A DNA stretch of 64,000 nucleotides from Verrucomicrobiota bacterium (GCA_024233345.1 JACKPT010000006.1:84959-148958), one strand, 5' to 3'. Shown: positions 19,649 to 55,367, counted from the stretch's first letter. Program-made: numbers and translations. Notes: generated from the letters alone by a model not told the origin.

Positions 19649-19896
19649 CCTTCTTTTCATTTTTTCTCACCCCCCCGCGTGGCGGCACCAAGTCATATCA
19701 ATCCGACCGCCAAAGCGAGGCGGGAAGGGCAACTTCACCCGGATGGCATCCGGGATTTTACACCAGGCAACACTTGCATTATGTTCTCCTTTACAGTGCA
19801 CCAATACGCGATGACCTGCGGGCAGGCCCAGCGGGATCAAGGACCGAACAAGAAGTGGACCCGGAAATCTGTATCGTGTGAACGGAAGTGAGACCC

Positions 19897-22800: not shown

Positions 22801-22956
22801 ATCTCGAACATTAGCTATCAGGCCGAAGCGACCCTTACCTTCGAGGAATGGACCAGCACCGGCGTTCCATTACCCGGAACCGACGGCACACTGGAGACGG
22901 GCATACACCCGGGAAATCCGGGGGGCGCCTATCGCCTGAAGCTGATCCTGCCCTAG
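19897..22956 (+). CDS. ~1020-aa secreted clan GH-A-like glycoside hydrolase (family not assigned)
   Basis: Signal peptide MKQLRLLVIVLLPRILHA. DRFGQYKHATW...YFRVEKVNGRWWFIDPLGKLFFSHGI, FHNELEW (candidate acid/base NE) and VLISEWHF (candidate nucleophile). Ig-like segment. Terminal module ...LSWISISNISYQAEATLTFEEW...GAYRLKLILP. A GTG at 19888 is an alternative start. Confidence 0.7.
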   Translation: MKQLRLLVIVLLPRILHAAPITQGDVTLALGPDFLLDDAATGGGDTNLVTAEFDRDLTGLWIGTAGCDASISGIGWASPAGGTTATLATVTITYLGADGAEGGGDDVGFGSVTDTLNFTGVGEYFWQFDTPLTNRIDGSNTTFRIRIEANDHIRYKVDAGGAKISVAGTSAALGDPIELLADGGFENLTVTEPDAATSPWVSDNQWDNFDVVRETNVVRSGAQSLRLGYDGHNDARVLQISGTANASLNYALTFWAHSSNSNDPAVRAEFRTDNGGGYDFIATGTTFKTESQWTPHVLYVPASALAGRSGELIQVRLRRNDTKGTVFLDDLSLQIVPSIGIPLTGIQGLPPHFQHPNGGYLPPMFPFVDRFGQYKHATWREKVADESGLAASAAAEAADLAANPGSPEWNLYGGWDNGPTRTATGYFRVEKVNGRWWFIDPLGKLFFSHGITAVNTDSAGTSVTGREDYFEGLPEPGDPDEAFLTIGLMYHEEANAFRKYGTNWVETLADLAHRRLRSWGMNTIGSWSDSAIYLERRTPYSQVLYAAPGSSLAPGIPDYFNSAFGPNVAAALNNALAQGIGEDPWCLGLYFHNELEWARPNMVAVNDIAKAAIRKGASQPGKIAFRDMLQNTYNDNIAALNTAWGTSYANWNSFLTSTNLPNEILASPDYRDFYFLYASTYYATIKAQFTAHAPNTLYLGSRFTSNPHALAAEASALYADVSTYHPYQVTPNVPPAFLDADVPVLISEWHFTARDTGLYGDGLQTAIDQADRAQKYLGYAGFAVDHPNLVGIHWFMYYDRHTTGDSTGQNLGANYQTGFLTICDVPYIQTIQASRQIGTEMYGRRYQSFPPEIGFSLTSYPDIEDSIPYQAPFSLSDDSSPPENLSVSAWSANTNFIPDSAIVITGTGSNRTLSVTPTTADHSGGFITVRAIDASGVRAETPVFFLQGRPEMALDVPSSGQPTLSWISISNISYQAEATLTFEEWTSTGVPLPGTDGTLETGIHPGNPGGAYRLKLILP

Positions 22957-27597: not shown

Positions 27598-28536
27598 TTA
27601 CCCGGCGGGCAGGACCGCCTGTGCCTGTACCAGCCGGTTGAGCAGCTCCCTCACCCGCCGCTTTGCATAATCCGCTTGCCGGGAGTCCGGGTGTTCGGTG
27701 AGAAAAGTCCGGAAAGCGGTCAGCCGGGTATTCACAGAGAACCGATCTCGGTCATAGAATTGCGCACATTGAAAGGCGAGGGCGTGAATCCGGCGGATGG
27801 TTTCCTCGAGCATGCGTTCTGCGGTACCCCGGTAACACCCGCTGGAGCCATGAGCCAGATAAGCCTCCAACACCCTTCGCGCCGACCGCGCCCGGTCCAG
27901 ACCCTCGCGATTGGACCGGGCGTCCCAGTACAGGATCCGCGCTTCCCCAAAAAATGCACGGTCATGCCATTCCCCCTCCGATTCCGCTGCCGCAGCATAG
28001 CGGTAATAAACGGTGGCGACTTCGGGTTGGCCGGCCTGCTCGTAATACAGGCCGAGATGGTACTGCACCCGGGCGGCACGGGGAGCCTGGGGATCGTTGA
28101 GATACACCTTCTCCAGCATGTCCTTCACGAGGGCGTGCGATCGGCGCCCGGGCTCCTGCCCGTCGGGGCTTTCCGGGGACATTAACCGGATACAAAGGTC
28201 GAGTTGCCGGTCATTGGCTCGACTGCGGAATCCCGGGTACTCATCGGCCACCCGCTGGTACAGACGGAATGCCTGCCGATCCCGGCCCTCCCGCTCGAGC
28301 AGCTCGGCAAGCTGGAGCCGCGCTTCCGCACATTCGCTCCGGCCGCGGTACCGGGAAGCAATGCGCACGAGGATTTGGCGCGCTTGAGCGTACTCGTCCT
28401 GCCGGATTCGTTTTGCAGCTTCCTCAAACAGGACAGACGCATCCGGATCATCCGCCCTGGCACACGACAGCACTGGTGCGAACAGGGGAAGCAAGGCCAC
28501 TGCCCACCCCGCCAGCCACAGGGCGGTCGGCCTCAT
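27598..28536 (-). CDS. TPR lipoprotein, BamD/YfiO-like
   Basis: Lipobox LFAPVLSC, then TPR-like helices (...EYAQARQILVRIASRY..., ...AFRLYQRVADEYPG..., ...VQYHLGLYYEQAGQPEVATVYYRYAA...). ATG 28536 overlaps the stop of the upstream 1512-aa gene (ATGA on the minus strand). Confidence 0.6.
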   Translation of the reverse strand: MRPTALWLAGWAVALLPLFAPVLSCARADDPDASVLFEEAAKRIRQDEYAQARQILVRIASRYRGRSECAEARLQLAELLEREGRDRQAFRLYQRVADEYPGFRSRANDRQLDLCIRLMSPESPDGQEPGRRSHALVKDMLEKVYLNDPQAPRAARVQYHLGLYYEQAGQPEVATVYYRYAAAAESEGEWHDRAFFGEARILYWDARSNREGLDRARSARRVLEAYLAHGSSGCYRGTAERMLEETIRRIHALAFQCAQFYDRDRFSVNTRLTAFRTFLTEHPDSRQADYAKRRVRELLNRLVQAQAVLPAG

Positions 28537-31500
28537 GGCGCCTCCATGTACCGGTAGGCCCGGACCTTGCCGGGAGGAAGCTCCAACGGAGAGGGGCGCC
28601 CGCTTGCCGGATCGCCGGCATCGTACCAGAGAACATTTGCACTCGCGGCGGTGACCGCGCCTGCCGACCGCCAGCCCGGATCCTGCGGCGTGTCCTGCCA
28701 ATCGATGGTATAGATCTTCCCTGGCTCCGTATCAAGGCATAGCTCGATCGCGGGTGGCTCTCCGGGCTCGATCGACAAGCGCATCCGGGTGATCAACAAC
28801 GGCGCGGCCCCGAAACCGGTCACCCCGCCAGGAGTGGTGGCAGTCAGCTCGAAGTTGTCCAGGCGCGCAAAGCCGTTCGGGTTTCCGTTCCCGTCCCACC
28901 CGTTGATCTCCACAAACAACTTTTTTCCGGCCGCTCCGGCACCTGCGGTATAGAACCCGGAATGCTCGAAGGACTCGTAGGCGGAATTGACGGTGGAGGC
29001 CCGCGAAGTCGAGGTCGCGAGCACGGTCCGGGTTCCAGAGATCGTGTCGGAGTCAGTCACAAACAGGGTTACCACGATCCGGTCCGCCCCGTCGTTCCAG
29101 TTGAATGCGTCGCGCCAGACATAGCTCACATCGAACAGATCGCCGAGGGAGATCTGGTATCCAGTATCCATGCCGGCGATCACGGTGTCGGTGTCGGTAA
29201 CCACCAGGTTGCGGGTGCCGTCAAAGTCGAGATTGAGCCGGGTGGCCTCCAGGGTCTGATCAGGTGCCGTCAGGCCGGTGTTTTGCCAGAACGGGGTAAC
29301 CGCGTAGTTACGGCTGTCCACCGCGCTGGTATCCGCGTTAAAGTTGCCATTCCGAATGTCGCCCCCGATGATTGCGGTAACGGATGGTCCACCCACCGCA
29401 GCAGCGGTGAACAGGTTGGATATCGACACTTCCGGCAGTTCGTCGGTCCAAAGCGCGACCTCATCGAGGCCGCCGGGGTGGTTGGCCCCGTCATCGCGAC
29501 GCCATGGGGAGAATCCGCCAGCGCTGCCGTTGCCGAGAATCCATCGGGAGCCGTCGCCGATTACTGCGGTATCATCAAGGTCGAGAACCCCCTCGGACAA
29601 GGTTCCGCCGACCGGGCTCAGCCACCAGTGCACTTCGCCCGCGTCCCGCGTGTCATCCCACGACAGGACGAGCAGGTACCATCGCGAGACTGGAAGTACC
29701 CCGGGATGAATCAGTGCATCGGCATCCCCAACCTTGAGGCGTAATCCGGTGAAGTCCACATGTACCACATTCAGTGCGTTGCCGGATCCCGTGTCGGTCC
29801 CCTGAGCAAGTAGATGCGCAAACAGCAGGGGCGCATCCGGGGTACGGAACAGAATTGACAGGGTTCCCCGGGCGCCGATGAGGTCATCCTGGTCGAGCGA
29901 GGCGTTGAAGGTGTTCATCCGGACCGACGACCCGGCCATGCCATAGGCATCATCACCAAACGTTGTTCCGGCGGCGACAAAATCCGCAACCGGCAGCGCA
30001 CCCGCGTTGGTGTAGTTGCCATCGAATCGGAACCAGTAGTCGGGATCGAGTGCGGTGAGGGTTTCCTCCAGATTCGGAGGCGGCGGGATCACCGACAGGA
30101 TCGCGGCCGCCGACGTAACCGATCCAAAATCGTCGAAGACCACTGCCCGGTATTGGTCGTTGCTCATCCCGGTGGTGACGGCCGGAATAGTCAGGGTGGC
30201 ATTGGTCGCGCCCGCATAAACCACTCCGTTGGATAACCATTGATAGGTGAGCGGCCCGATCCCGTCAGCGGCGACGGTAAACGAAGCCGGATCGCCGGAT
30301 GCCACCGTAAGATCTGCGGGCGGTGCGGTGACCGTGGGTCCTGCATAGAAAGTCGTATGGGACTGGAACTGGAGCTTGACCTCATCCTCGGTCAATTCCC
30401 GGAGCCAGAACGCGATTTCATCCACCGTTCCCGATTCGGTCCCCACCCGCAGCGCGTTATCCCACTCAACGCCGTTGCGGTGCCCCACATAGACCGGACC
30501 ATCGTCCCCGAACACATCTGTATTACCGACATCGACCACCCCGGAGTCGAGCGGACCGTCCAGTGGCCCGAGGTACCAGATCGCCTCCCCGGGGTCGCGA
30601 TCGAGATCCCAGGTCAGGGCGAAGTAATACCAGGTGTCCTGGAGAGGTTGACCGCTGATGAGGGTTGTGGTCACAGATCCGAGCAGCAGGGTCAGGCTGG
30701 CTGGGGAGAACCGCATGCTGAACGCATTACCGGAGGCCGGTGAACCGCCCTGGGCGAATACATGGCGGTTTGCACCGTCGAACGGCAGAGCCGGGGTGCG
30801 GAACAGAAGGGAAAATGCACCACGGTCGGAAACCATGTCGGCGGCTTGCGCGACATGATCGAACCCGCCGACAAGGTCAAAGGCATTGGAGGCATTGCCG
30901 AGGTTATCCGTGCCCCGGGGAAGGCGGTTTTTCACGTAGTTCCCCTCTGAGGTCAGATCGGCAGCGGGCTGGGCTCCGAAGTTCGCGAGCGTGTCATCGA
31001 GCGGAAACCAGTAGTCGGGTTGCTGACTCAGCACCGCTTTCTGGTAGACCCGGACCGGGGTTACCGTAACCGTGGCAGGCTGGGAGGTAACGGTGCCGAT
31101 GGCATTGGAGACAAACACGGTGAGTTGGGCTCCGTCATCCGCCAGGGTGACCCCGAGGCTGAGGTCGGTATTGGTGGCCCCAGGGATCGGCGCGCCATCG
31201 ATCCGCCATTGATAGTGGATCGGCCCCTCGCCAATGGCCTGCACCGTAAATCGGCCAGTTGCCCCGTCTGGGATCGTCTGGGAAACCGGATGGGTAACGA
31301 TGGCCACCGCTCCCGATGGCGCGGTCAGGGCCCCGAATTGGGTGGCCAGATCGAGCGGGGTCAGTTCCCGGTGCCAGATCGCAACCTCGTCCAATGCCCC
31401 CGGCCGCCCATCCTCATACCAGCTTTCCCACTGCCGGAAATCCCGGTTGGCGAGAATGAATGGCCGGTCATCATTGCCCGCATTCGAGGTATCGCTTACG

Positions 31501-33047
31501 CTTCGGGTGCCGGTGCTGAGCGAGCCGCCGAGTGGACCGTATGCCCAGTGGACCGTTCCTGAAGAAATATTCCAGCTCGCGCCGAAGTAATACCAAGTGT
31601 CGATTGCTGGCGGGGCGTTGTCGAGGGTGATCGTCGCGTTGCCAATCCGGAACGTAGCGGACGGCGAGGTAAAATAGAGGTAAAAGGCGTTCGGTGACCC
31701 GGTGCCTTGGGAAAAAATGACCCGGTTTTTGTCAATCGCCAGGGGTCTGGCCGGCGTCTTGAGCAGCAGGGAAATTGCCCCGACATTCTCGATGATGTCG
31801 TTGGTCTGGTACACCATGTCCTGCCCGCTGTCGGTGTAGTACGCGAGCTTTTCAAAGGTCTCGAAATCCGCATCAAATCGGCCCCCATGACCGAAGTCAC
31901 CGCCATCGAACAGCAGAGGGGAACCACCGAGCGTGCCAGAGTCGGTTGTGTTTCCGTCCATGCGATACCAGACCGGGGGAACCTGGCTGGCGAGAATGCC
32001 CTGGTAGTTGCCGTTGCCAGTACGGAGTACCGCGACCTCACTGGTCACCGCGCCGACCGCGTTGAATGCCACCACCCGGTATTCATCCCCATTTTCAACG
32101 ACTGTGCTGACGGTGTGGGTGTAGCTGGTGCCGATGGCGCCGGGGATGTTGACTCCGTTTCGTTGCCACTGAAACGACGGGGATGGCGCTCCCACCGCAG
32201 CGGTCCGGAACGTGACGGTTTGCCCGGGCAATGCCTGCTGGCTGAATGGCTGCTCGAAAATGTTGGGAAGCGACGGAGTGTTGACCATGAACCCAGAGCT
32301 GTAATGGGTCCCGTTGAGCAGCATGGCGGTATTGCCCGCCTTGTCCCGCAACAACATGTTGTACACAACCCACTGGCCAGCGGGGGCGGTGGGCGAGAGG
32401 ATCGTCGTTCCCCGGTACGTGTCCGGCGCGATCTCTGTCCACGTGTTGACCTGGCTTTGTCCGATCCCTGATTCGTGGGTCAGGTTCACGTACATGTTCG
32501 TGGGCTCCAGCCCGCTCACATCATCGGTCACCACCACGGTCACGGTGGCAGGCGCATTGAGCGTTGCGGGGTTCGGAGTCACCGTCACGCTGTGCATGAC
32601 CGGCGGCGCCCCGTCGGGGGTTGGACTGACGACTTGAAAGTTGACCCAGAAGTGGGTTCCGTAAAGGTAAAATGCGCCATTACGGTTCCGGTCGTAGACC
32701 AGCAGGGAATGAACCTTCCAGGTACCGGCCACGGCGTTTGGTCCGATCTGTCCACGCCCCTCGTACCAATCCCCGCCCAGCGACCGCCAGTCGTCCACCG
32801 TGATCTGCCCACCACCCTGAGGATTCAGCAAAATACCATAGATCCAGTTGGTATTCACCCCAACCCCCGTATCGGATATTCGTGCGGTTAGGGTCACATA
32901 CTGGCCCGCCTCCACCGGCGAGGATGCCGACAGGCTGATCAGCGAGGGTGGCGTTGTGTCCGACCAAGCGACCCCGGCCATGCAAGCCGCCATCAGCACC
33001 AGCGGCAGCACCAGCCTCCCCCCCAAGCGACCTGACCTTGGCTTCAT
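28533..33047 (-). CDS. ~1500-aa secreted surface protein: 2 N-terminal beta-sandwich repeats, alternating Ig(I-set-like) and LamG_3-like domains (x3), one unassigned module, C-terminal beta-rich module
   Basis: Signal MKPRSGRLGGRLVLPLVLMAACMAGVAWS. Ig-like segments (F.W.RNG..IPGA..., YQWRIDGAPIPGATN, YQWLSNGVVYAGATN). LamG-like segments (WY.MDGN..D..., DE[VI]A[IF]W.REL[TS]). Module ...IRNGNFNADTSAVDSRNYAVTPFWQNTG...VSYVWRDAFNW...LFVTDSD...FARLDNFEL. An ATG at 33071 is an alternative start. Confidence 0.8.
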   Translation of the reverse strand: MKPRSGRLGGRLVLPLVLMAACMAGVAWSDTTPPSLISLSASSPVEAGQYVTLTARISDTGVGVNTNWIYGILLNPQGGGQITVDDWRSLGGDWYEGRGQIGPNAVAGTWKVHSLLVYDRNRNGAFYLYGTHFWVNFQVVSPTPDGAPPVMHSVTVTPNPATLNAPATVTVVVTDDVSGLEPTNMYVNLTHESGIGQSQVNTWTEIAPDTYRGTTILSPTAPAGQWVVYNMLLRDKAGNTAMLLNGTHYSSGFMVNTPSLPNIFEQPFSQQALPGQTVTFRTAAVGAPSPSFQWQRNGVNIPGAIGTSYTHTVSTVVENGDEYRVVAFNAVGAVTSEVAVLRTGNGNYQGILASQVPPVWYRMDGNTTDSGTLGGSPLLFDGGDFGHGGRFDADFETFEKLAYYTDSGQDMVYQTNDIIENVGAISLLLKTPARPLAIDKNRVIFSQGTGSPNAFYLYFTSPSATFRIGNATITLDNAPPAIDTWYYFGASWNISSGTVHWAYGPLGGSLSTGTRSVSDTSNAGNDDRPFILANRDFRQWESWYEDGRPGALDEVAIWHRELTPLDLATQFGALTAPSGAVAIVTHPVSQTIPDGATGRFTVQAIGEGPIHYQWRIDGAPIPGATNTDLSLGVTLADDGAQLTVFVSNAIGTVTSQPATVTVTPVRVYQKAVLSQQPDYWFPLDDTLANFGAQPAADLTSEGNYVKNRLPRGTDNLGNASNAFDLVGGFDHVAQAADMVSDRGAFSLLFRTPALPFDGANRHVFAQGGSPASGNAFSMRFSPASLTLLLGSVTTTLISGQPLQDTWYYFALTWDLDRDPGEAIWYLGPLDGPLDSGVVDVGNTDVFGDDGPVYVGHRNGVEWDNALRVGTESGTVDEIAFWLRELTEDEVKLQFQSHTTFYAGPTVTAPPADLTVASGDPASFTVAADGIGPLTYQWLSNGVVYAGATNATLTIPAVTTGMSNDQYRAVVFDDFGSVTSAAAILSVIPPPPNLEETLTALDPDYWFRFDGNYTNAGALPVADFVAAGTTFGDDAYGMAGSSVRMNTFNASLDQDDLIGARGTLSILFRTPDAPLLFAHLLAQGTDTGSGNALNVVHVDFTGLRLKVGDADALIHPGVLPVSRWYLLVLSWDDTRDAGEVHWWLSPVGGTLSEGVLDLDDTAVIGDGSRWILGNGSAGGFSPWRRDDGANHPGGLDEVALWTDELPEVSISNLFTAAAVGGPSVTAIIGGDIRNGNFNADTSAVDSRNYAVTPFWQNTGLTAPDQTLEATRLNLDFDGTRNLVVTDTDTVIAGMDTGYQISLGDLFDVSYVWRDAFNWNDGADRIVVTLFVTDSDTISGTRTVLATSTSRASTVNSAYESFEHSGFYTAGAGAAGKKLFVEINGWDGNGNPNGFARLDNFELTATTPGGVTGFGAAPLLITRMRLSIEPGEPPAIELCLDTEPGKIYTIDWQDTPQDPGWRSAGAVTAASANVLWYDAGDPASGRPSPLELPPGKVRAYRYMEAP

Positions 33048-33089
33048 CTCTGTGCACCCCGCATGAGCCATCCTGCCTTCATTCCCGGA

Positions 33090-44186: not shown

Positions 44187-45026
44187 ATGATTAAATCCAT
44201 ACTGACCTGTACGGATGGATCCGCCTACAGCGAGACGGCGGCGCACTACGCGGTTGACCTGGCGTCCAGCCTGCGGGCACGACTGGCGGGGTTGCATGTT
44301 CTGGACTCCCGGCTGCTCGAGGGGCCCTTCCTTGCCAATGTATCAGGGTGGATCGGGGCCCAGCCCTGTGCGGACAGCCTCGGACAGTTCAGGGCCTTGA
44401 TGCAGGAAAACGGCAAGGCCATGCTGGCGGCCTGGCGGATCAAGCCAGCCGGAAGGACATTGACCTGGAGCCCTCGAGGACTGGGGACACCGGCACGCAT
44501 CATTCTGCAACAGGAAATCCACACCGAACTGGTCGTGCTGGGGTTGCGCGGTGAGCATGCCGACCTGAACCCGGAATTGGTGGGTCGACGACCGACCGGG
44601 TGGTGCGCCACAGCACCCAGCCCTGTCTGCTCACCCCGGCGAGCCATCGCCCGATTCGACGATTGATGGCGGCCTATGACGACAGCGCCTACTCTGCGAG
44701 GGCGCTTCAGGTCGCGATCGACCTCGCCCTCTCCCTGCAGGCCCCTGTTGGTGATTCTCTCCGTGGTGGAAAATGGAGACCATGAACTGGCCATGGATCA
44801 CGCAGACGCGGCAATGAAACTGGCCCGGGCGCACGAATGTGCGGCAGCCTATATGGTGGCGGAGGGCAATGTTCACGAAGTGATTCTCGAGCAGGCCGAG
44901 GCGCTGAACTGTGACCTGATCATCGCGGGCGCTCACGGACACGCGCGCATACGCGAACTGATTCTCGGCAGCACCGCGACCTATCTGATGAACCATACCG
45001 AGCGGCCCCTGCTGCTGGCCCGGTGA
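44187..45026 (+). pseudogene. tandem universal-stress-protein (UspA) gene broken by frameshifts
   Basis: Usp-like sequence continues across three frames. Segment 1: MIKSILTCTDGS...ELVVLGLRGEHA (44187 to ~44580). Segment 2: GGSTTDRVVRHSTQPCLLTP...RRLMAAYDDSAYSARALQVAIDLA (~44580-44750). Segment 3: LLVILSVVENGD...DLIIAGAHGHARIRELILGSTATYLMNHTERPLLLAR (to 45026). The frame switches lie at GGTGGG and CCCC runs. Confidence 0.6.
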
Positions 45027-46932: not shown

Positions 46933-47065
46933 GCCCCAGAGTTCCGTTGCCACCCGTGCCCTGTGTTTCCTCTGGTTTGCCAATAGCTCAGTGGGTTGCG
47001 TTGGTCTGAATGCCCACGGATCTTGCGGATCGCACGGATGAGGATTAGATTGGATAAAATAGGGG

Positions 47066-47177
47066 TCGGGCAATGAGTCATCGATGTCGCGCGTAGCGCC
47101 CATCTCCGAATGGGCGTTGGCTGTTTCGGCGAGCGGGGCAAGTCGCCGATATGGAAATCGGCGCTACACTCCGGGGG
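47066..47177 (+). repeat. left copy of the 112-bp direct repeat bracketing the lower-GC island
   Basis: 109/112 identical to 55057-55168. It contains two hairpins: AGCGCCCAT-CTCCGA-ATGGGCGTT and CGCCGAT-ATGGAA-ATCGGCG. Confidence 0.9.
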
Positions 47178-47205
47178 GGAGCGGAAAAGGGGGACAAGTA
47201 GATTT

Positions 47206-47679
47206 TTAATCACGCGAACAATTTGGAGCCATGGTCTCCTTCCGCCAGGAACAGAGCTGGAGAGCTGCCAACAATAATGGCAGAACAAATATCACGGCCA
47301 GATGAATGTGGGTCACCAGGCGGTCGGCATTCGCGCCGCCGAACTGTGCCGCTAACACCAAGCCAGTGTTGATGCCAGCCATAATTGATCCAGAGATGAT
47401 GCCGGTCACGATGCTATGCTTCCCGCGAACTTTTATGATAATGCATCCGGCAATAAACAATACGCTGTTCTGAATTCCCATCCAAAGGCCATGAGCAAAT
47501 ACATTGCGCCAGAAGATCACCATCTTACTCGTCGAAGGGTAGCTCGTGTCGTCCCATAACCTGGCCCAATTTCCACTAAGAGCAAGAGTCACGAGCGCAA
47601 GAAGGCATGCTGTCACCACAGCGGAGAGGACTGCCCTCACGTACGGATTGGTTAGTCGTTTCTTTTGCATATCATGCAT
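47206..47679 (-). CDS. hypothetical 4-TM membrane protein (island)
   Basis: Hydrophobic segments AVLSAVVTACLLALVTLAL, GIQNSVLFIAGCIII, IISGSIMAGINTGLVLAA and LAVIFVLPLLLAAL. The start is uncertain (47679, 47670 or 47736). Confidence 0.5.
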   Translation of the reverse strand: MHDMQKKRLTNPYVRAVLSAVVTACLLALVTLALSGNWARLWDDTSYPSTSKMVIFWRNVFAHGLWMGIQNSVLFIAGCIIIKVRGKHSIVTGIISGSIMAGINTGLVLAAQFGGANADRLVTHIHLAVIFVLPLLLAALQLCSWRKETMAPNCSRD

Positions 47680-47692
47680 TGAACGCTGCCGT

Positions 47693-48007
47693 TCACCAGT
47701 CGTTGGCAGATGCGTCCGTATGGCTGTCAACGGCATGGTGGGAGGGCTTGTTCGGACTGTCTTCTCGATTGTGTTTTGACCTGGACCACAGAAACAGGAA
47801 TGGAACTGTGATGATCAGCATCCAGAAGGAGACGTGGGCGGCAAAGCGCAGCCGCTCGGGAACGGTGTCGAATGCGAGGGAAAGCGAAACAGGAGAGACC
47901 GCGGGGAGAGTTGCCGCACAGCATCCGAGGGCGTAGAGCAACAGGAACGCGACAGCGTAGATCACGACTGCTGCGATGCCGAATCGTTTCCATTCTGCTC
48001 TCATCAT
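47693..48007 (-). CDS. hypothetical small membrane protein (island)
   Basis: 104 aa with 2-3 TM segments (FGIAAVVIYAVAFLLLYALGCC, VSFWMLIITVPFLFLW). It is preceded by a CTGACGTTCGGA box 7 nt upstream of the ATG. Confidence 0.5.
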   Translation of the reverse strand: MMRAEWKRFGIAAVVIYAVAFLLLYALGCCAATLPAVSPVSLSLAFDTVPERLRFAAHVSFWMLIITVPFLFLWSRSKHNREDSPNKPSHHAVDSHTDASANDW

Positions 48008-48103
48008 CTCATCGTCCGAACGTCAGTGATTACCGGGTTCCGAGCCCGCAGCGGGTGAGGAATTCGATGGATCGCGTTAGCACATCCGATTATAGATACT
48101 GTT

Positions 48104-49357
48104 TCATGGAAGGACCATTCGGTAGCGAAGTGCCTTGGCATTAAGAATGCTGCCCGACGAGACAACCCAGCGGTTGCTGACAAGGTCGGGAATTAGGTGG
48201 GTGTTCTCCCAAGAACTATCCGTAAGGTTGATCGTCTGCTGGAGAATTCCGCGTGGACCACTACCGTCCCATCCGACAGAAATCGCATCAGCAGTCACGG
48301 TAAACGCTGATATCGGAACAATGGGCATGACCCTGAATCCCTTGAACATATACGTCGTGCCGCTTGCGTAACTCAGACTTGAAACATCAATCACACCCCG
48401 CACACAAGCCGCGATGGCATTGGTCGGAGATATCAAGGAGTACAACCGTGAAAACATGTGTGCATCGACCGGTGATACATGTTCACCTTCATCATGCGCA
48501 ATAACGATGCCGTTTGTGTCCAGCCAATGAATTTCAACCCATGCCTCCGAGGTCCACGGGTTATCTGAATAGATAACGCCATAGGCCACGTACATCGAGC
48601 CGGGAGATACAGGAAAGCATTGATAAATTGCGGGGTATACATTCGTCTCTTCCGCCATATGAGTATATCGTGCAACATGGTTGTACTCTTCCCAGAGGTA
48701 GGATCTACTCCACTGAGTGCCGATAGTGCTCCACCCCTCGAGGTCATCAACTGCAAAATCCGGATTCGCCAGCAAGCCTTGCGGGTTCTGTTCAAACGAG
48801 AATTGGTCAAACCCGTAGGTGTCTGTATCGGATGGCGACGAAAACGAGCGATCGACGACGGCCGCTACCCGTACAGTCACCGCTTCATTCGGTGCCACCA
48901 GCGACAAGGCTTGTTGCGACGGCTGATAATCTTGGTTCGAGTTTATTGAGGTCGTCCTCTGTGAATAGATGGTACTTCCATCGTTCCTTTTCCATTCGAT
49001 CTCCAGCCAGCATTCAGAGGATGAAATATTGTCTGCCAGGACAAACATATGTGCAGAATAGTATGCCCCCTGTGTGACCGGCACGTCCTGATATAGTAGG
49101 ATCTCGCTGCCCCAATTGGATATATCCGACTGAAATATCGCGCCATTCGCGTCGTCGCTATTACTCACTCCCTGCCCGATGCTCCATCCTGTGCCGACGG
49201 TGGTCCAACCAGAAAAATCCCCTGATTCAAACTGTCGATTGGTTAGCAAATCGGCATGAGAATATGGAACGAAGCAGACTAGTGCGGACAGTACGCTTCG
49301 TTGACATAGCCATCGCGGCGCGAAACGATTGAGTGGCAGCCTGTGTGTTGTCTTCAT
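48104..49357 (-). CDS. secreted protein with two CBM4/9-like beta-sandwich domains and a C-terminal beta-rich module (island)
   Basis: Signal-like N-terminus. LLTNRQFESGDFSGWTTVGTGWS and LLANPDFAVDDLEGWSTIGTQWS start the two domains. The tail is ...ISVGWDGSG...LTDSSWEN...ALRYRMVLP. Confidence 0.65.
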   Translation of the reverse strand: MKTTHRLPLNRFAPRWLCQRSVLSALVCFVPYSHADLLTNRQFESGDFSGWTTVGTGWSIGQGVSNSDDANGAIFQSDISNWGSEILLYQDVPVTQGAYYSAHMFVLADNISSSECWLEIEWKRNDGSTIYSQRTTSINSNQDYQPSQQALSLVAPNEAVTVRVAAVVDRSFSSPSDTDTYGFDQFSFEQNPQGLLANPDFAVDDLEGWSTIGTQWSRSYLWEEYNHVARYTHMAEETNVYPAIYQCFPVSPGSMYVAYGVIYSDNPWTSEAWVEIHWLDTNGIVIAHDEGEHVSPVDAHMFSRLYSLISPTNAIAACVRGVIDVSSLSYASGTTYMFKGFRVMPIVPISAFTVTADAISVGWDGSGPRGILQQTINLTDSSWENTHLIPDLVSNRWVVSSGSILNAKALRYRMVLP

Positions 49358-49369
49358 TATATTGTGCGA

Positions 49370-49759
49370 TTAGGATGACGGTTCGTCTGGAGACGCGCTC
49401 GGCGCGGCTCCAGGCGATACCTGTCGACTCTTTGGTTCGGATTCCCTTTCCTTAATGTATCCCAAGAGCAACAGTATCCCTGCCACATTGAGAATCAATG
49501 CGATGGGGTACAGCCCCGTCGCCACAAGGTATGCGACGGCATAGAGCTTGCCCGGGTACACAGCTTGGACGGCCTGCTCGCCGATTCCCGCGAGCAAGTT
49601 GTTAAGGCACATCAGGATGACGATTGGGGAGGAACAGGCGAAGCAGACAAGGAACCTGCGGCGGCCGAAACGTCTCACGCCCCAGAGAAGTGCACCGAAG
49701 ATAACGAGGTTGCCGAGCAGAGCCGCTGCGTTTGCTGTGTGATGAAAGGCGTCAATCAT
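49370..49759 (-). CDS. hypothetical 3-4-TM membrane protein (island)
   Basis: 129 aa, hydrophobic throughout. It is preceded by CGTTCGGAT 9 nt upstream of the ATG. Confidence 0.5.
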   Translation of the reverse strand: MIDAFHHTANAAALLGNLVIFGALLWGVRRFGRRRFLVCFACSSPIVILMCLNNLLAGIGEQAVQAVYPGKLYAVAYLVATGLYPIALILNVAGILLLLGYIKERESEPKSRQVSPGAAPSASPDEPSS

Positions 49760-49783
49760 ATCTCTTAATCCGAACGACTCGAA

Positions 49784-50668
49784 TCACGGTTTTTCAGAAG
49801 AGGCGCCGCTAAGCGCGGCTTCTGAAAATACCTGTGAATTCGTTAGTTGAGCCTCTTCTGTTTCGACCCAAAGTCCTTTCTGTTTGAGAAGCGCTTCGGC
49901 TTCCTTGTGACGTACAGGTGTCTCCAGAGCCAGTATCACCTTCCTGTCGGGCAAGTACCTTGTGACCTTGCTGAGACGAAATTCACCGGATGCACTGTTC
50001 GGGCCGGATGGCACCATTATGCTCCAGGATCTCATTCCTGCCATTTTGACGAACACAAAACAGACAGGATCCCAATCGTGCTCCGCATGTGTTCGCCCTT
50101 CGGCGATCCATTCTTCTGTCGTACGAATCAGCTCATCCCCAACTCCGTAAGCACGACACTCCATCGCGCGTGGTGAACGAGAGACGTGCAACGCATCTGC
50201 CCTCGGTTCCCAATGCAAACCAGCCATGTTCGGGCCAACGAGTGAGCACCATAGTGAGTGATGTCCGCCAAGCCAGCCGGTGAATGGTGCACTCTCAAAT
50301 CCCTCTGCCCCGCGTCGCTTCATCTCCTCCTCGTGAAGTCGGAAATCGGCGATGAGACGGTCCATGTGAACGTCGAGTTGGGGGATGGAGTTCACTTTGA
50401 TGATCTGCGTTGGTGTTGAATCAACTGTGATGGCCTCGGGCAGAGCCCCGTCACTTGCTTCACGAATGGCAGCATTTACCATGGCAACGACGTTGGTCAT
50501 CGGTTCCATTTCAAACTGGAGATCCGGTCGCACGTACGAATCCCACTTGTAGGGGAGTTGATGTGCTATCGGGTGCAACCAGCGGTATACCACAGGGGTG
50601 AGCAGTAGGCCACCGAGCAGAAGCACCGAAACCAACGCAGCAATCAGGCATCCTCGTTTTATCTTCAT
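49784..50668 (-). CDS. hypothetical N-terminally anchored protein (island)
   Basis: MKIKRGCLIAALVSVLLLGGLLLTPVV is an anchor or signal, followed by a soluble domain with no recognised family. The ORF-track N-terminal extension (to 50995) runs into the intron and was rejected. Confidence 0.55.
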   Translation of the reverse strand: MKIKRGCLIAALVSVLLLGGLLLTPVVYRWLHPIAHQLPYKWDSYVRPDLQFEMEPMTNVVAMVNAAIREASDGALPEAITVDSTPTQIIKVNSIPQLDVHMDRLIADFRLHEEEMKRRGAEGFESAPFTGWLGGHHSLWCSLVGPNMAGLHWEPRADALHVSRSPRAMECRAYGVGDELIRTTEEWIAEGRTHAEHDWDPVCFVFVKMAGMRSWSIMVPSGPNSASGEFRLSKVTRYLPDRKVILALETPVRHKEAEALLKQKGLWVETEEAQLTNSQVFSEAALSGASSEKP

Positions 50669-50735
50669 GGGCACAACACCTAGCTGAGGGGCGATGTGCC
50701 GCGCAGCGGTACATCGTCCCTCTCCAGGTCTTTGT

Positions 50736-52610
50736 GTGCGCCCAGCATGGGCGCGTTGTAAATGGGGTGCAAGTCCCCTGTAGAAAGGACCAGCACATGT
50801 ATATGTGTAACAACTACCACGCGAATCCAACGCCGGAAGGGTAACCGACCGGTGGGAGGAAGGATAGCGGAAACCGGTGGGCCGATGGACAAGAATCGCA
50901 TAGCAAGGCCGTTCGTGGCGCGATGAGTTGGCACAACACAACGAAGTCGCGGGTCCAACCACGGAGGTAAATGCGGCGGTCGTGCCGGGAAGCAACGCGC
51001 TCTTACCTGGGGAGATCCCTTCCGGGTATAACCGGGAGGAAGTCAGCAGAGGCCATAGTACCGAGCAGCGAGCCGGGGGATGAAAGAAGCCCGCTTAAAC
51101 TACGTAACCGGAAGACTCGATGTCGGGAAGGGCTGAACCGACAAGGAAGGTTCCGACCACGGATTGGACGTGAGGCCCGAACACGCCGGGATGGCGAGGG
51201 AACCACGAGAGCCGAACCGATGGGAAGCATGGGAGCCTTCGAGAATAGAACCATGATCGAACAGATACTCGACAGTGAGAACATGCAACGGGCCTGGCAA
51301 CGCGTCAGGTCCAACGCTGGGGCACCGGGTATCGACAGGATGACCGTCGATGCCTTCCCGGCGTTCTGCCGATCTCACTGGCCCCGGATTCGTTCGATGC
51401 TGATCGAGGGAACCTACCGCCCGGCGCCGGTGCGCCGGGTGTTCATTCCCAAGCCTGACGGGTCGCAACGCCCGTTGGGGGTGCCGACGGTGTTGGATCG
51501 CGTCATCCAGCAAGCAACAGCACAGGTCCTGACCCCGCTCTTCGAGAGCGGTTTCAGTGAGCACAGCTACGGCTTCCGCGAAGGCCGCAACGCCCATCAG
51601 GCGGTGCAGTCGGTGGAAGCCGGTTGGAAGGAAGGTCGCCGCCACGCAGTGGATTGTGACCTGAAAGCCTTCTTCGACACCGTGGACCATCAACGGCTGA
51701 TGGGGCAACTGCGGGAGAAGATCAGGGACCGCAAGGTCCTGAAGCTGATCCACCGGTACCTCGTGGCCGGAGTGGTATTGCCGGACGGAACCCGAGAGGC
51801 AACCCCTCAAGGCGTCCCTCAGGGTGGGCCACTCTCGCCCCTGTTGGCGAACATCGTGCTTGATCCACTCGACAAGGAACTCGAACGCCGAGGGCATCAT
51901 TTTGCCCGCTATGCGGATGATTTTCTTGTATTAGTGAAAAGCCCGAAGGCTGCCGAACGGGTGATGAGCAGTCTTACACGATTCGTTGAGGGTCGCCTCA
52001 AGCTGACAGTCAACCGGGCCAAAAGCAAAGCCGCGCCGCTCAAACAATGTGCCTTTCTGGGATTCCAGATCGGGCGCGGAGGTAAAGTGGTGTGGTCAAC
52101 CAAGGCCCTCGCACGCTTCAAGAGCCGGGTGAAAGAAATCACCCGGCGAAACCGGGGCCACCGGGTGCAGGACGTCATTGACGAATTGCGCCGGTATGTC
52201 ACGGGCTGGATCAACTACTTCCATATCAGCCACACCTACACGGCGGTGGAGGAACTGGCAGAATGGATTCGGCGAAGAGTGCGGCTGTACTTCTGGAAGC
52301 AATGGAAGCAACCACGGACCCGCCGCCGCCATCTGCTCGCTCTGGGCATCCCGCCCGGAGAGGTGCATATGGCTACACGGAGCCGGAAAGGATACTGGCG
52401 GATGAGTTCCAACAGCATCCTCCAACGGGCACTGACCAACCAACGGCTGCATGAGCAAGGCGTCCCAGATCTGCGCACGCTATGGATCAAACTCCACTAT
52501 GGGCCAAACGCCCGAGTCTAGTCGGAACCGCCCGGTGCGGACCCGCATGCCGGGTGGTGTGGGACTCGTGACTGGCTGAGGTTCCCCTCAGTCAGTCACG
52601 GGGACCCGAT
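50736..52610 (+). mobile_element. complete bacterial group II intron (about 1.87 kb; boundaries +/- a few nt)
   Basis: The 5' end is GTGCGCCCAGC... at 50736, and the RT/maturase ORF sits in domain IV. A DV-like hairpin at 52527-52558 has a 9-bp lower helix CCGCCCGG.../...CCGGGUGG, a 2-nt bulge, a 4-bp upper helix and a 4-nt loop. A long DVI-like stem at 52561-52607 has an unpaired A at 52604, 6 nt before the proposed ...GAT 3' end. Confidence 0.8.
51220..52521 (+). CDS. group II intron reverse transcriptase/maturase (no endonuclease domain evident)
   Basis: ...MQRAWQRVRSNAGAPGIDRMTVDAF..., RRVFIPKPDGSQRPLGVPTVLDRVIQQA, GFREGRNAHQAV, PQGGPLSPLLANI, and YADDFLVLV (the YADD box). The maturase X region is ...RYVTGWINYF.... 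The start is ATG 51220 or 51253. Confidence 0.92.
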   Translation: MGSMGAFENRTMIEQILDSENMQRAWQRVRSNAGAPGIDRMTVDAFPAFCRSHWPRIRSMLIEGTYRPAPVRRVFIPKPDGSQRPLGVPTVLDRVIQQATAQVLTPLFESGFSEHSYGFREGRNAHQAVQSVEAGWKEGRRHAVDCDLKAFFDTVDHQRLMGQLREKIRDRKVLKLIHRYLVAGVVLPDGTREATPQGVPQGGPLSPLLANIVLDPLDKELERRGHHFARYADDFLVLVKSPKAAERVMSSLTRFVEGRLKLTVNRAKSKAAPLKQCAFLGFQIGRGGKVVWSTKALARFKSRVKEITRRNRGHRVQDVIDELRRYVTGWINYFHISHTYTAVEELAEWIRRRVRLYFWKQWKQPRTRRRHLLALGIPPGEVHMATRSRKGYWRMSSNSILQRALTNQRLHEQGVPDLRTLWIKLHYGPNARV

Positions 52611-53121
52611 TGGCATTATCATTCTCTTGTCTGTACTCGTTCACCGCTTGAGCGAATCGCTTCTCGAAGTTCTCCAGTTCTGAACAGTTTGATTTCGAGT
52701 GTAATATGAATAGTGCCCGGTCGCCATTCTTCTTGCGGATGATTGTCCAGTCGAATTGTCTGAGTCGCCATGCTCCAGCGATCAGCGCCCAGACTCCTGG
52801 CACGGCAAGAAATGGAGCAAGTAGCGGAATCTGCTTGTTGAACTCTGAGAAGTAAACACATGCAGAACCGGCGAGGAATATCATGGCTTTTCGCAGAAGG
52901 GTACGGCTCCCGTGTCCGAATTCCGTTTGGTGATCGAGTTGCGGCGACAGGTCTGCGAGAGGATAACGCTGACTGCCTCTGCTCGTGTTCGCAGGTGTTG
53001 TCCACTCTCTTGTTAGAGCTTCAGTCGTCAACGTGAAAGTGTAGTGCCATGGCCACGAGGCTGAGTGAACGGTGCAAAGCGTTGTCTCTGTCTTCTTCAT
53101 TTCGTATTCTGCCAACGTCAC
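52588..53121 (-). CDS. hypothetical membrane protein whose 3' end is replaced by intron sequence (island)
   Basis: 177 aa with two central TM segments (AMIFLAGSACVYF, LLAPFLAVPGVWALIAGAW). The last 6 codons and the stop (RVPVTD*) lie inside the intron 3' end. The GTG 53121 start overlaps the upstream stop (GTGA); ATG 53100 is an alternative. Confidence 0.55.
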   Translation of the reverse strand: MTLAEYEMKKTETTLCTVHSASWPWHYTFTLTTEALTREWTTPANTSRGSQRYPLADLSPQLDHQTEFGHGSRTLLRKAMIFLAGSACVYFSEFNKQIPLLAPFLAVPGVWALIAGAWRLRQFDWTIIRKKNGDRALFILHSKSNCSELENFEKRFAQAVNEYRQENDNANRVPVTD

Positions 53122-53984
53122 GCCTCAGCAGACCCGGAGGGCGCGTCCGCGCGCCCTTCGGGGTATGCTGGAGGCGATGGTTCGGTGTTCTCCTGTTCTT
53201 GATTCGATTGAAGCTTCCGCCTCTTGATCAGGAACAGGATGGCTCCAAGGGGAAATGAGACCGTGAGAATCCATGGCGCATAGAGCCCCATCTTTGCCAT
53301 TCCCGCTCCGGGAATCTGCAATGCGATGGGCTGGAAGCCCATCTGTCCTGTTGTCCAGTTCAGGTTGAGCTTTGCGATCCCGACAAGAATGAAGATGATC
53401 CACAACCACTTCTTCCGGATCTTGGTGCGGACGCAAAGAACAAACGTCCAGATAATGAAGATGGGGACAGCGACGGCAAGGGCAAGTAGCACATAGTGCT
53501 GGATGCCTTTACCCGACAGGGTGAAGGCATTCAGCTCTCCAAGAGATTTCGGGATTGGGTTCACGTTCAAACCGAACACCTTTTTGTTCCCGTCTACGGT
53601 GTCGATCGTGATTGCGGCAAGAACCCAGGCATTGGTGAACTGGTATTGGTAGGTAAGGTGTGAGCGTTTCTTGTCCGGTGTTGTGAAGACATTACAGCCG
53701 ACGAGTTCCAAGGACAATGGGTCGCCGTGGTCGAGCATGGCGGCAACCTGGGTCAGATTGGACTCGATCCCGGGCTTGACGAACTGAGGATCAAGCTGCT
53801 CCGTCACAATCTTGAAATCCCCTGCAAGCAGGGCAGAAAGGCATTGTTTCGCAAGGGCCTCGTCATCATCTGGGGCCATTCGGTTCATCATGTTGCTCAA
53901 GTAATCATTGGGATTGCATCCGCATAGCGCTGTCATGAGAATGGCCACGATGACGAGCCTGAATTTCATCTGGATTCCTTTCAT
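53118..53984 (-). CDS. hypothetical lipoprotein-like membrane protein (island)
   Basis: MKFRLVIVAILMTALCGC is a lipobox. A soluble domain follows, then 3-4 C-terminal TM segments. It is preceded by AACGTTCGGT close upstream of ATG 53984; ATG 53969 is an alternative start. Confidence 0.55.
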   Translation of the reverse strand: MKGIQMKFRLVIVAILMTALCGCNPNDYLSNMMNRMAPDDDEALAKQCLSALLAGDFKIVTEQLDPQFVKPGIESNLTQVAAMLDHGDPLSLELVGCNVFTTPDKKRSHLTYQYQFTNAWVLAAITIDTVDGNKKVFGLNVNPIPKSLGELNAFTLSGKGIQHYVLLALAVAVPIFIIWTFVLCVRTKIRKKWLWIIFILVGIAKLNLNWTTGQMGFQPIALQIPGAGMAKMGLYAPWILTVSFPLGAILFLIKRRKLQSNQEQENTEPSPPAYPEGRADAPSGSAEA

Positions 53985-54048
53985 CTCTCACCGAACGTTG
54001 AATTCAGCGGCGCGGTATTCCGCGTACGCTGGAATTTGGTGTTCGGAT

Positions 54049-54495
54049 TTAGAATACTGCATGACTCACATACAGGATTATCCGGTTGTCTTCCTTGGTC
54101 AATACGGCCCTGAAGTAGTCATTGTCTGGTTGGTGGCACTGCCTGTCGATTAGGATCGACTCCTTCGGGGGAGGCCACCAATCCACCTTTTCCCCGGGAC
54201 CTCCTGAAATGTTGATGTCTTCGTTCTGAATGGCCTCGATTTGCTTAAGCACGCTATCACTGGCTGCCTCTGGGATTTCCACCCTTGCGACGAATGAGGG
54301 GTCAATCGGAGGGCTGTATCGGAAGTTGAGACCGCGAGTTCCTTGCGGCAGCTTCAGACCACTGTCGTCATTAATCATTTGCATTGCCTCAGGGTCAAAG
54401 GTATCTGGGCCTAGCTCAAACTCCCGGAACCAGCGAGAGTCGCTGCATCCAGCAAGAAGTACGGCGGCAAGGACGCAAAGTATTGCATTTTTCAT
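54049..54495 (-). CDS. hypothetical lipoprotein (island)
   Basis: MKNAILCVLAAVLLAGCSD is a lipobox; 148 aa. It is preceded by CTGACGTTCGGA 7 nt upstream of the ATG. Confidence 0.55.
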   Translation of the reverse strand: MKNAILCVLAAVLLAGCSDSRWFREFELGPDTFDPEAMQMINDDSGLKLPQGTRGLNFRYSPPIDPSFVARVEIPEAASDSVLKQIEAIQNEDINISGGPGEKVDWWPPPKESILIDRQCHQPDNDYFRAVLTKEDNRIILYVSHAVF

Positions 54496-54857
54496 TTTAT
54501 TATCCGAACGTCAGCATTGATGATCATGGACTTGTCCATGTGTCATCGGATGCGCTGTTCTGCCCTTTTGGTCCTGTGATTTCAAACTATCCAAAACCTC
54601 TTGCCACCTCTTCGTCATGCCGGCCTCAGGACCTTTAAAGCGCATCCCGCCTTCGTCGGCAGCAACCCCGTTCTGCTGCGAAGGTGGGAGCAAGATCGCA
54701 GTCGGAAGCGCGGACAGCCTTGTGGGCTGTCAAATCCCGCAAAGCGGGACTTGCCGCCCCCGGCGGCTTACGCTTCCGGGGCGATTCTAGTCCTTGTCCT
54801 GAGGCTGGCAAGACGTTTCCGATCCCAAAAAATCATAACCACCCTAGCAGAACAGGT

Positions 54858-54959
54858 TTATTCCCGGACACCATGTCGCTTATAGCGGTAGGTGGATAAA
54901 CCGAGCCGCTGGGCGCAAATCTTGCGGGGGTGTCCGGAGGGTTTGATTGCTTTGGACAT
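54858..54959 (-). pseudogene. possible transposase N-terminal HTH scrap
   Basis: A 33-codon ORF, MSKAIKPSGHPRKICAQRLGLSTYRYKRHGVRE*. The segment ICAQRLGLSTYRYKR resembles the ...AC..LG.SRS.YY.... HTH found at the N-terminus of IS3/integrase-core transposases. No catalytic part follows. This is weak evidence. Confidence 0.25.
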
Positions 54960-55056
54960 GGGTGCGCGCCACCTCATGGCCTTATGCTGGCGATTTGGCG
55001 GGGGATAATCCAGCCCGAAATCGCAAAATGTCGATTCTGAGTAGTCTCGGGCAAAA

Positions 55057-55168
55057 TCGGGCAATGAGTCATCGATGTCGCGCGTAGCGCCGATCTCCGA
55101 ATGGGCGTTGGCTGTTTCGGCGAGCGGGGTAAGTCCCCGATATGGAAATCGGCGCTACACTCCGGGGG
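55057..55168 (+). repeat. right copy of the 112-bp direct repeat bracketing the island
   Basis: It differs from 47066-47177 at three positions (C/G, C/T, G/C). Confidence 0.9.
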
Positions 55169-55290
55169 AACGACGCTTGGTCCCTCTGGTTTGTCGACTG
55201 CCTCCGGGTCAATGGGTCGATCAAGGGCGGGGGTTCGCGAGCGAGGCGTATTGCCAGGCAGTTGAGCATACCGAGGGCATTGTGCCAGTT

Positions 55291-55367
55291 TTCCAACGCT
55301 TGGAAAAAGAGGCGAAAAAAGTTCCAAAGGCTGGAACTTTTCGGCTGGTCTATTCCAAGGGTTGGAA
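55291..55367. promoter_or_regulatory. three TTCCAA-N3-TTGGAA-type palindromes phased at exactly 31 bp (protein-binding array or hairpin terminators)
   Basis: TTCCAACGCTTGGAA (55291-55305), TTCCAAAGGCTGGAA (55322-55336) and TTCCAAGGGTTGGAA (55353-55367). The spacer sequences are not conserved. The middle site is flanked by A4 and T4-6 runs, so it could be a bidirectional intrinsic terminator for def. Confidence 0.4.

Follow-up and report, generated by a model that had tools for sequence, protein, structure and literature searches.

A probable CALIN-like gene-cassette array, with a dispersed REPIN-like repeat at both ends, between parA and def of a Verrucomicrobiota bacterium

The core sites of textbook attC sites read RYYYAAC and GTTRRRY. 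In integron mobilisation units, integrons are bracketed by repeats resembling miniature inverted-repeat transposable elements (MITEs), with terminal inverted repeats, target duplications and an intI gene in the array. Here we report on a 64,000-nucleotide stretch from a Verrucomicrobiota bacterium (GCA_024233345.1 JACKPT010000006.1:84959-148958, hereafter the window), taken from a metagenome-assembled genome (MAG), in which an array of integron type occupies 8.5 kb between the housekeeping genes parA and def. The closest described systems are clusters of attC sites without an integron integrase, for which PMC7923331, citing Cury et al. 2016, gives the name CALIN, and the group IIC-attC introns, which insert antisense into the R'' box on the attC bottom strand at TTGT/T and are found in CALINs too (PMC3001079, PMC7923331). 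We consider it probable, at roughly 80%, that the parA-def interval is a gene-cassette array of integron type, CALIN-like and with no integrase beside it. An earlier note on this DNA had named a cassette array last among three possibilities and without evidence; that suggestion now has attC sites at the junctions, matches between R'' boxes and the starts of their own cassettes, and an intron within an attC site to its credit.

Like CALINs and the arrays of sedentary chromosomal integrons, the locus holds co-oriented, tightly packed and mostly uncharacterised small genes. As in CALINs, hairpin attC sites with AAC/GTT ends lie at the 3' ends of cassettes, G|TT stands a few bases before start codons, multi-gene and ORF-less cassettes (ORF, open reading frame) both occur, and there is no intI nearby. 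It differs from them in its core sites, which read xxxGAAC and GTTCGGx, in the absence of the last attC, and in its host, the named relatives of the Def and ParA proteins being Kiritimatiellia. Whereas the proximal end of an integron is the usual position of intI and attI, here it is a conserved non-attC junction beside a REPIN-like repeat, and a complete integron, whose array is headed by intI, a neighbouring attI and a promoter, is not seen. In kind the system is thus a known one, a CALIN-type array with an attC-targeting intron, its ends marked by a lineage-specific REPIN-like repeat. Our literature search found no report of such cassette arrays in Kiritimatiellia.

Downstream of def, along the minus strand, come first a REPIN-like repeat, then a module that we call the S-head, then an ORF-less cassette, and finally the genes i8, i7, i6, i5, i4 with i3, i2 and i1. 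Every cassette starts TTNNNN right after a G, and all except the last end in a hairpin attC (R''-L''...L'-R'):

54509-54852, minus strand: cassette 0, ORF-less, 344 nt, starts TTCTGC, highly structured.
53996-54508, minus strand: cassette 1, with i8 (54049-54495, 148 amino acids, lipoprotein).
53116-53995, minus strand: cassette 2, starts TTCGGT, own R'' ACCGAAC, with i7 (53118-53984, 288 amino acids, lipoprotein signal and four transmembrane segments).
52611-53115, minus strand: proximal part of cassette 3, starts TTGGCA, own R'' TGCCAAC, with i6 (start at 53100).
49775-50676, minus strand: cassette 4, with i5 (49784-50668, 294 amino acids, N-terminal transmembrane anchor).
48021-49774, minus strand: cassette 5, two genes, i4 (49370-49759, 129 amino acids, transmembrane) and i3 (48104-49357, 417 amino acids, secreted).
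47684-48020, minus strand: cassette 6, starts TTCGGA, with i2 (47693-48007, 104 amino acids, transmembrane; weak sub-cutoff holin-like Pfam match).
47178-47683, minus strand: cassette 7, starts TTCAAT, with i1 (47206-47679, 157 amino acids, multiple transmembrane segments); no attC after it.

Reading the junctions by eye gave six usable attC sites and one degenerate site (G); the stem of H is also degenerate:

54503-54563, minus strand: attC A, R'' GCAGAAC, R' GTTCGGA; DNA fold z -3.4; R'' complementary to the cassette 0 start TTCTGC.
53990-54047, minus strand: attC B, R'' TCCGAAC, R' GTTCGGT; second-best match of the covariance model described below; DNA fold z -4.7.
53110-53186, minus strand: attC C, R'' ACCGAAC, L'' GCCTCCAG, L' CTGAGGC, R' GTTGGCA; best match of the covariance model; z -4.85.
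50671-50735 plus 52611-52615, minus strand: attC D, split by the intron; the distal part holds AC of R'', spacer, L'', L' and R' GTTGTGC.
49769-49852, minus strand: attC E, R'' GCTCAAC, R' GTTCGGA; overlaps the 3' end of i5; DNA fold z -5.0.
48015-48103, minus strand: attC G, degenerate, R' GTTCGGA kept, R'' and stem decayed; z +0.5.
47678-47756, minus strand: attC H, R'' TCCGAAC, R' GTTCAAT; overlaps the 3' end of i2; R'' complementary to the cassette 6 start TTCGGA.

Sites A, B, C and E form single DNA hairpins (z -3.4 to -5.0) in which AAC pairs with GTT; the hairpin sequences differ among sites and the AAC/GTT ends are constant. The 'CGTTCGG boxes' upstream of start codons are the R' core sites. 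A covariance model (CM) was built solely from the attC sites of an unrelated array, on contig L013, and run over all 64 kb with filters off; a previous CM, whose RNAalifold structure had just 5 pairs, was discarded. The best match of the L013 model in the window (53099-53188, 26.2 bits, E = 6e-5) falls at the i7/i6 junction and its second (53979-54049, 21.3 bits, E = 1.6e-3) at the i8/i7 junction, both on the gene strand. A weak match was obtained at the i6/i5 junction (50657-50742, 10.4 bits), and all matches beyond the best two had E > 1.

The strongest test is internal to the sequence. Recombination of circular cassettes would predict that an R'' box is complementary to the first hexamer of its own cassette, hundreds of bases upstream, and does not match the adjacent R', because the adjacent R' bases belong to the next cassette. 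In all six evaluable cassettes R'' fits its own first hexamer better than the adjacent R', at 6/6 positions in five (starts TTCTGC with own R'' GCAGAAC, TTCGGT with ACCGAAC, TTGGCA with TGCCAAC, and two separate cassettes starting TTCGGA, each with TCCGAAC) and at 5/6 in one (TTGTGC with GCTCAAC).

The array is interrupted by an intron, which had been placed at the right end of the island and in fact lies in its middle:

50736-52610, plus strand: group II intron, 1875 nt, GTGCG to GAT; Rfam RF02001, 99 bits.

It is antisense to the cassettes and inserted at TTGT|T in attC D, the site between i6 and i5, on the bottom strand within the R'' box, with borders reading CTTTGT|GTGCG...CCGAT|TGGCA. 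The first five bases of that R'', TGCCA, stand at 52611-52615, on the other side of the intron. Removal of the intron gives the junction TGCCA|ACAAAG and an attC D that folds strongly, restores R'' TGCCAAC and lengthens i6 by 18 codons, its frame having originally run on through attC D (50735-50682). The intron-encoded protein (~51220-52521) carries RVT_1 and GIIM, that is, reverse transcriptase (RT) and maturase, matches TIGR04416 and has no endonuclease domain. Target site, antisense orientation, small size, RT and maturase without endonuclease, and the parting of a gene from its attC are all as in group IIC-attC introns such as S.ma.I2 (PMC3001079, PMC7923331); the likeness here is drawn from insertion site and protein domain content. 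The intron is multi-copy in metagenomes, and therefore probably uses other targets as well. In runs X6 and X10, contigs join its 3' part (to 52562) via 34-38 other letters to its start at 50735, which points to intron copies elsewhere in the community that are nested or joined head to tail. An apparent intron-less joint, 50754 to 52590, in one run has a side of only 23 nt and is incompatible with the boundaries; it was disregarded.

At the proximal end the array meets a conserved module, and both ends meet the 112-bp repeats:

54853-55056, minus strand: S-head, array-proximal junction site ending GGGAATAAACCTG|TT (...AAACCTG|TT).
55057-55168, plus strand: right 112-bp repeat, linker and REPIN-like core, core depth 20-60x.
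55169-55308, plus strand: B-tail, tail of the right element, part of the dispersed unit and not unique flank.
47066-47177, plus strand: left 112-bp repeat, a 20-nt linker (47066-47085) and a REPIN-like core (47086-47177), core depth 20-58x.
46966-47065, plus strand: A-head, a further multi-copy repeat module that abuts the left 112-bp copy on its left side.

Metagenomes contain 2-5 exact copies of the ORF-less cassette 0, whose neighbours differ on either side and whose boundaries lie at the G|TT junctions; exact contigs from Logan cover 54505/54519-54853 at 2-5x flank depth. Its RNA fold, a long branched hairpin, has -167.7 kcal/mol (z -7.9), and it has no Rfam or Pfam match. A sigma-70-like site (10/12) is directed at the downstream cassettes, and cassette 0 could be a promoter or small-RNA cassette. 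The S-head, for its part, is shared with contigs L008 and L011 up to G|TT, where different cassettes follow (TTGGGC in L008, TTAGCT in L011); in the window the partner is TTCTGC, and loose ends of Logan contigs add TTCGGC. The ...AAACCTG|TT junction is thus found with at least four different first cassettes, and a fifth (TTGGCT) with a slightly different junction. The last ~55 nt of the S-head are a multi-copy hairpin (depth 4-7x at 54843-54908, single copy further in). What had been taken for a 33-codon transposase-like scrap is a conserved small ORF of the S-head (54858-54959), whose stop codon recurs in two other contigs. The exact multi-copy cassette 0 and the variable first cassettes at one junction lend indirect support to recombination of these sites by IntI.

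The two 112-bp repeats, 47066-47177 and 55057-55168, were recomputed with the result first reported: they are 109/112 identical with sharp edges, and the three differences (47101 C/G, 47139 C/T, 47145 G/C) lie in or beside the two hairpins. A 32-mer of the repeat occurs twice in the window, with 0 occurrences expected by chance. The left core consists of inverted 24-nt palindromic units (47093-47116 and 47144-47167) 27 nt apart, 19/24 identical when inverted and with a compensating C/G swap, and the minus strand of the repeat folds better than shuffles (z -2.8 to -3.6). For depth, Logan contigs from four sludge runs were compared with the island boundaries. In all four the ~92-nt core (47086-47177 and 55077-55168) reaches 20-60x the depth of single-copy flanks; contigs break inside it, and many different sequences adjoin it. 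The 20-nt linker, identical in both copies, has about single-copy depth. The dispersal of the family is read from this metagenome depth, and a sister species shares the family. The 112-bp repeats are, accordingly, two same-orientation copies of a high-copy, mosaic REPIN-like double hairpin, one at each end of the array. Such an inverted pair of ~24-nt palindromes with a short spacer, high in copy number in metagenomes, intergenic, mosaic with other modules and sometimes clustered, resembles REPINs, which are hairpin-forming pairs of REP units, and the BIME mosaics of enterobacteria, as does the repeat-free acquired DNA between copies, comparable to a 'REP desert' (PMC3390384, PMC8049555). In contrast to REPINs, variable head and tail modules of 100-200 nt are attached and copies adjoin cassette junctions; and whereas REPINs are mobilised by RAYT transposases, the family described here is known from its repeat units alone.

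The mosaic is evident in the modules joined to the core, which has different heads (A-head, S-head) and different tails. The A-head, at 12-50x the word depth of the flanks in Logan, aligns with the heads of two copies in L007 (L007a and L007b) and follows other core copies in Logan contig joints ('goes back 208'). The B-tail has a 92% match in L006/L009, where it lies beside a different gene, and has been kept, again downstream of def, in a relative whose Def is 94% identical (L015). Three TTCCAA-N3-TTGGAA palindromes (55239-55337) lie within the B-tail unit, at 2-6x flank depth. No Logan contig has 55092 G or 55136 C, the two bases by which the right copy stands alone. A metagenome scan found copies of the repeat at four further loci (L006/L009, L007, L008 and L011), and plasmids gave no match for it. 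The repeat had been singled out for a count of its copies: many were indeed found in metagenomes, at 20-60x depth and with many flanks, and the readable ones lie beside cassette junctions, all five readable loci (window included) adjoining one. L008 and L011 have S-head junctions beside repeat copies, and L007 has two genes and an attC-like site between two copies. The pair in L007 (1243-1831, minus strand), a nucleotidyltransferase with weak AbiEii/DUF2204 matches and a 62-amino-acid upstream partner between two REPIN-like elements, looks like a toxin-antitoxin cassette. On L009 (Ga0116151_10043349) positions 1541-2615 are a blaVEB-1 cassette, 99.7% identical to plasmid copies and with exact G|TT boundaries, ~335 nt from a REPIN-like repeat copy and within flanks that have no plasmid match; the attC of a further small cassette follows at 2798-2885. 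As this is a single contig, its assignment to a host is tentative.

The island is absent from relatives. The earlier note had proposed looking for parA and def side by side, and they are so in some of them: in relatives with 73% ParA identity (L020/L021) a USP-rmuC-parA series abuts def-GT2 with a 4-nt overlap, and in L022/L023 def and parA are adjacent and co-directional. A relative with 87% ParA identity has different genes after parA and different genes after def. Since neighbours differ among relatives, the parA/def junction is variable in this clade, and parA of the window is without its usual neighbour because the array lies there. In the 87% relative (L018:4581-5683) a glycosyltransferase follows parA, and then a 303-amino-acid Y1 (IS200-like) transposase bracketed by 42-nt inverted repeats. 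It was considered as a link to the 112-bp repeat family and rejected, its inverted repeats being its own and unrelated. The stretch itself is present in 20 activated-sludge and wastewater runs, and in eight runs, drawn from seven or more studies, the depth of the island is close to that of its flanks.

Composition sets the interior apart. Its lower GC, which had been spotted on single lines, was confirmed at 54.9% (53.2% with the intron left out), the remainder of the window having 59.9%; no 7.9-kb stretch of the window is lower in GC, and this one stands >5 standard deviations below the other non-overlapping stretches of that length (mean 60.1%, standard deviation 0.9, minimum 58.2), and the tetranucleotide distance agrees, being maximal at 47-51 kb. 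GC per cassette is 50.6-57.3%, against ~60% for the genome. The searches of the source DNA for integrase, attC and repeats covered the 64-kb window, and copy depths come from metagenomes. Neither the island ORFs, nor those beside it, nor the window's ORFs of IntI size gave a Phage_integrase match, in line with the earlier statement that no integrase or recombinase is present, which held for the window ORFs checked. Rfam returned nothing at either boundary or in the repeat copies, and a promoter scan stayed at chance level.

The sequences themselves show the attC sites, the cassette limits, the target of the intron, the dispersal of the repeat and, in relatives, an empty site. The following course of events would account for the locus. 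Cassettes would have been inserted singly, as circles, by an integron integrase cutting G|TT of the folded single-stranded attC; since no integrase gene is visible in the window, the enzyme would be encoded elsewhere in the genome or have been lost, and its action is put forward here as an inference. The cassettes would be expressed by read-through from def. The intron, of group IIC-attC type, would have come later, antisense, into the R'' box between i6 and i5.

Several observations weigh against an array of integron type. No integrase was found in the window, so that insertion by IntI is deduced from the scars it would leave. Only 577 nt, all of them repeats and without intI, separate the first junction from def, and the S-head lacks the form of a canonical attC and is not a proven attI. 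The core sites (xxxGAAC and GTTCGGx) deviate from the textbook RYYYAAC and GTTRRRY, which is why a strict RYYYAAC...GTTRRRY scan of the island found no site; a loose scan for AAC...GTT hairpins does not discriminate, because the DNA is GC-rich. The CM did not detect sites A, E and H, which come from reading by eye; sites G and H have degenerated, and an attC is missing after the last cassette (i1). From the stop codon of i1, whose true start is 47679, to the left repeat there are just 28 nt, and no attC was found beyond that repeat either. The MAG from which the window comes also carries indel errors. Logan contigs from several runs show single-base indels relative to the window at 44430, 44470, 44489, 44581, 44746, 45494, 45529 and 45636, and likewise at 51037 and 51188; because of those indels, the 'cluster of frameshifts' in USP and rmuC is most likely an error of the MAG consensus and not biology.

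Two other explanations of the island as a whole were considered. It could be a lineage-specific envelope operon of ordinary kind, the hairpins between its genes being terminators or members of other repeat families. A generic hairpin scan is indeed non-specific, but the CM matches at these junctions are the top two in the window and lie on the gene strand, the hairpin sequences differ and yet keep their AAC/GTT ends, and R'' varies in step with the opposite end of its own cassette. Add the intron target TTGT|T, the multi-copy cassette 0 with copy edges at G|TT and the i3 homologue in a true array (L013), and we regard an operon as improbable. The earlier proposal of a decayed integrative element, a prophage or an integrative and conjugative element remnant with the 112-bp repeats as its att sites, is more improbable still and largely refuted. 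Direct repeats do bracket a compositionally deviant stretch absent from relatives, as it would require. However, integrase, recombinase and phage genes are all absent from the island, the interior shows cassette architecture, and in the 94% relative the right copy and tail are retained downstream of def; moreover, as members of a dispersed high-copy family, not confined to two ends, the repeats are not att sites. The remaining proposal, a segment between two copies of a REP- or MITE-like element, is correct as a description of the ends.

How the array came to lie between two repeats is a separate question, and here movement of the array together with one 112-bp copy as a unit is possible, if the less probable course; it would refine the reading as a cassette array and not replace it. 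A circle of linker-core, S-head and cassettes would have recombined by homology, in a Campbell-type integration, with a resident A-head/linker/core/B-tail element between parA and def, duplicating the 112 bp. In keeping with this, homology of the two copies begins where the heads diverge and stops at the end of the core, fusing the flanks rebuilds one full head-linker-core-tail element, and the tail begins with a shared 'CCTCTGGTTTG' box, as in L007 and the 'goes back 208' joints. The linker, at about single-copy depth, is the same in both copies, the attC of the last cassette is lost right at the repeat, a second small array, in L007, is bracketed likewise, and REP elements have been proposed as recombination sites (PMC3390384). 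On the other hand, the cores of the two island copies are 96.6% identical, a value that the left copy also reaches with L006b from another locus. Because S-head with linker and core and A-head with linker and core both occur elsewhere as complete units, two independent copies fit the layout equally well. Nor was an empty-site or excised-circle junction seen in the short-read contigs, which break in the repeat, and the island stays close to flank depth. The locus resembles integron mobilisation units in that a short non-coding repeat stands in direct orientation on each side of a cassette array, but terminal inverted repeats, target duplications and intI, which those units have, were not seen here. 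A bolder extension, which we think doubtful, is that REPIN-like element and head module together form a dispersed docking platform for cassettes without an integrase of its own; an integrase working in trans would then start arrays at many places in the chromosome. Whole arrays bracketed by direct repeats could in turn move by homologous recombination.

Returning to the cassette array, its interior is filled by eight ORFs, all on the minus strand, for which Pfam, NCBIfam and PADLOC gave no family beyond weak sub-threshold matches. Their description as genes without a recognised family stands to that extent, and i7 is no orphan: it has full-length matches in 2048 representative clusters at E <= 1e-3 (558 at 1e-30) and nothing in Pfam, NCBIfam or PDB, so that on sequence comparison it belongs to a large unnamed, uncharacterised family. 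The products of i1, i2 and i4 are proteins with multiple transmembrane segments, and i8 and i7 have lipoprotein signals. For i3, modelling suggests two beta-sandwich domains with a weak CBM4/9 likeness (mean pLDDT of the AlphaFold model 52), and PDB sequence searches with i3 and i7 gave no match.

A single homologue of i3 was found among 5.8 billion sequences (56% identity), in a three-gene cassette of the array on L013; this contig is taken to be an integron cassette array because ~ten repeats of ~65 nt on it have attC layout. The L013 array (1-21242 of a 55-kb contig, JGI 3300014202) has a lower GC of 42-50%, and among its cassette products are a KAP NTPase, a DnaJ-CXXCXGXG protein, proteins like Yip1 and BamE, and many that are uncharacterised. 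i3 had also been said to end in a terminal domain shared with proteins of the core region. A motif of nine residues is in fact common to them (ALRYRMVLP against AYRLKLILP), and BLAST found no significant similarity; the origin within the same lineage that had been deduced from it is weakly founded, the sole homologue of i3 lying in a foreign array of lower GC. The motif, A-[YL]-R-[YL]-x-[LM]-x-L-P, recurs (ALRYRMVLP, AYRLKLILP, AYRYQLLLP) at the C-terminus of several secreted proteins (48104-49357, 19882-22953, 28536-33089; P0002) among which BLAST detected no domain-level similarity; its role may be that of a terminal strand or a sorting signal specific to the lineage.

For the organism, an unexplained island of small envelope proteins becomes recognisable as a probable cassette array in a little-studied phylum of the PVC group (Planctomycetes, Verrucomicrobia, Chlamydiae) that is common in wastewater plants, and its eight genes gain a mode of acquisition, one-by-one capture from an environmental cassette pool. 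The related blaVEB-1 contig suggests that cassettes are exchanged with clinical integrons. Should the link between hairpin repeat and cassette junction be real, it would be an unusual way to organise and move arrays; and if the repeats did serve as docking platforms, such arrays may already carry clinical cassettes, as the blaVEB-1 beside the repeat family in L009 would exemplify.

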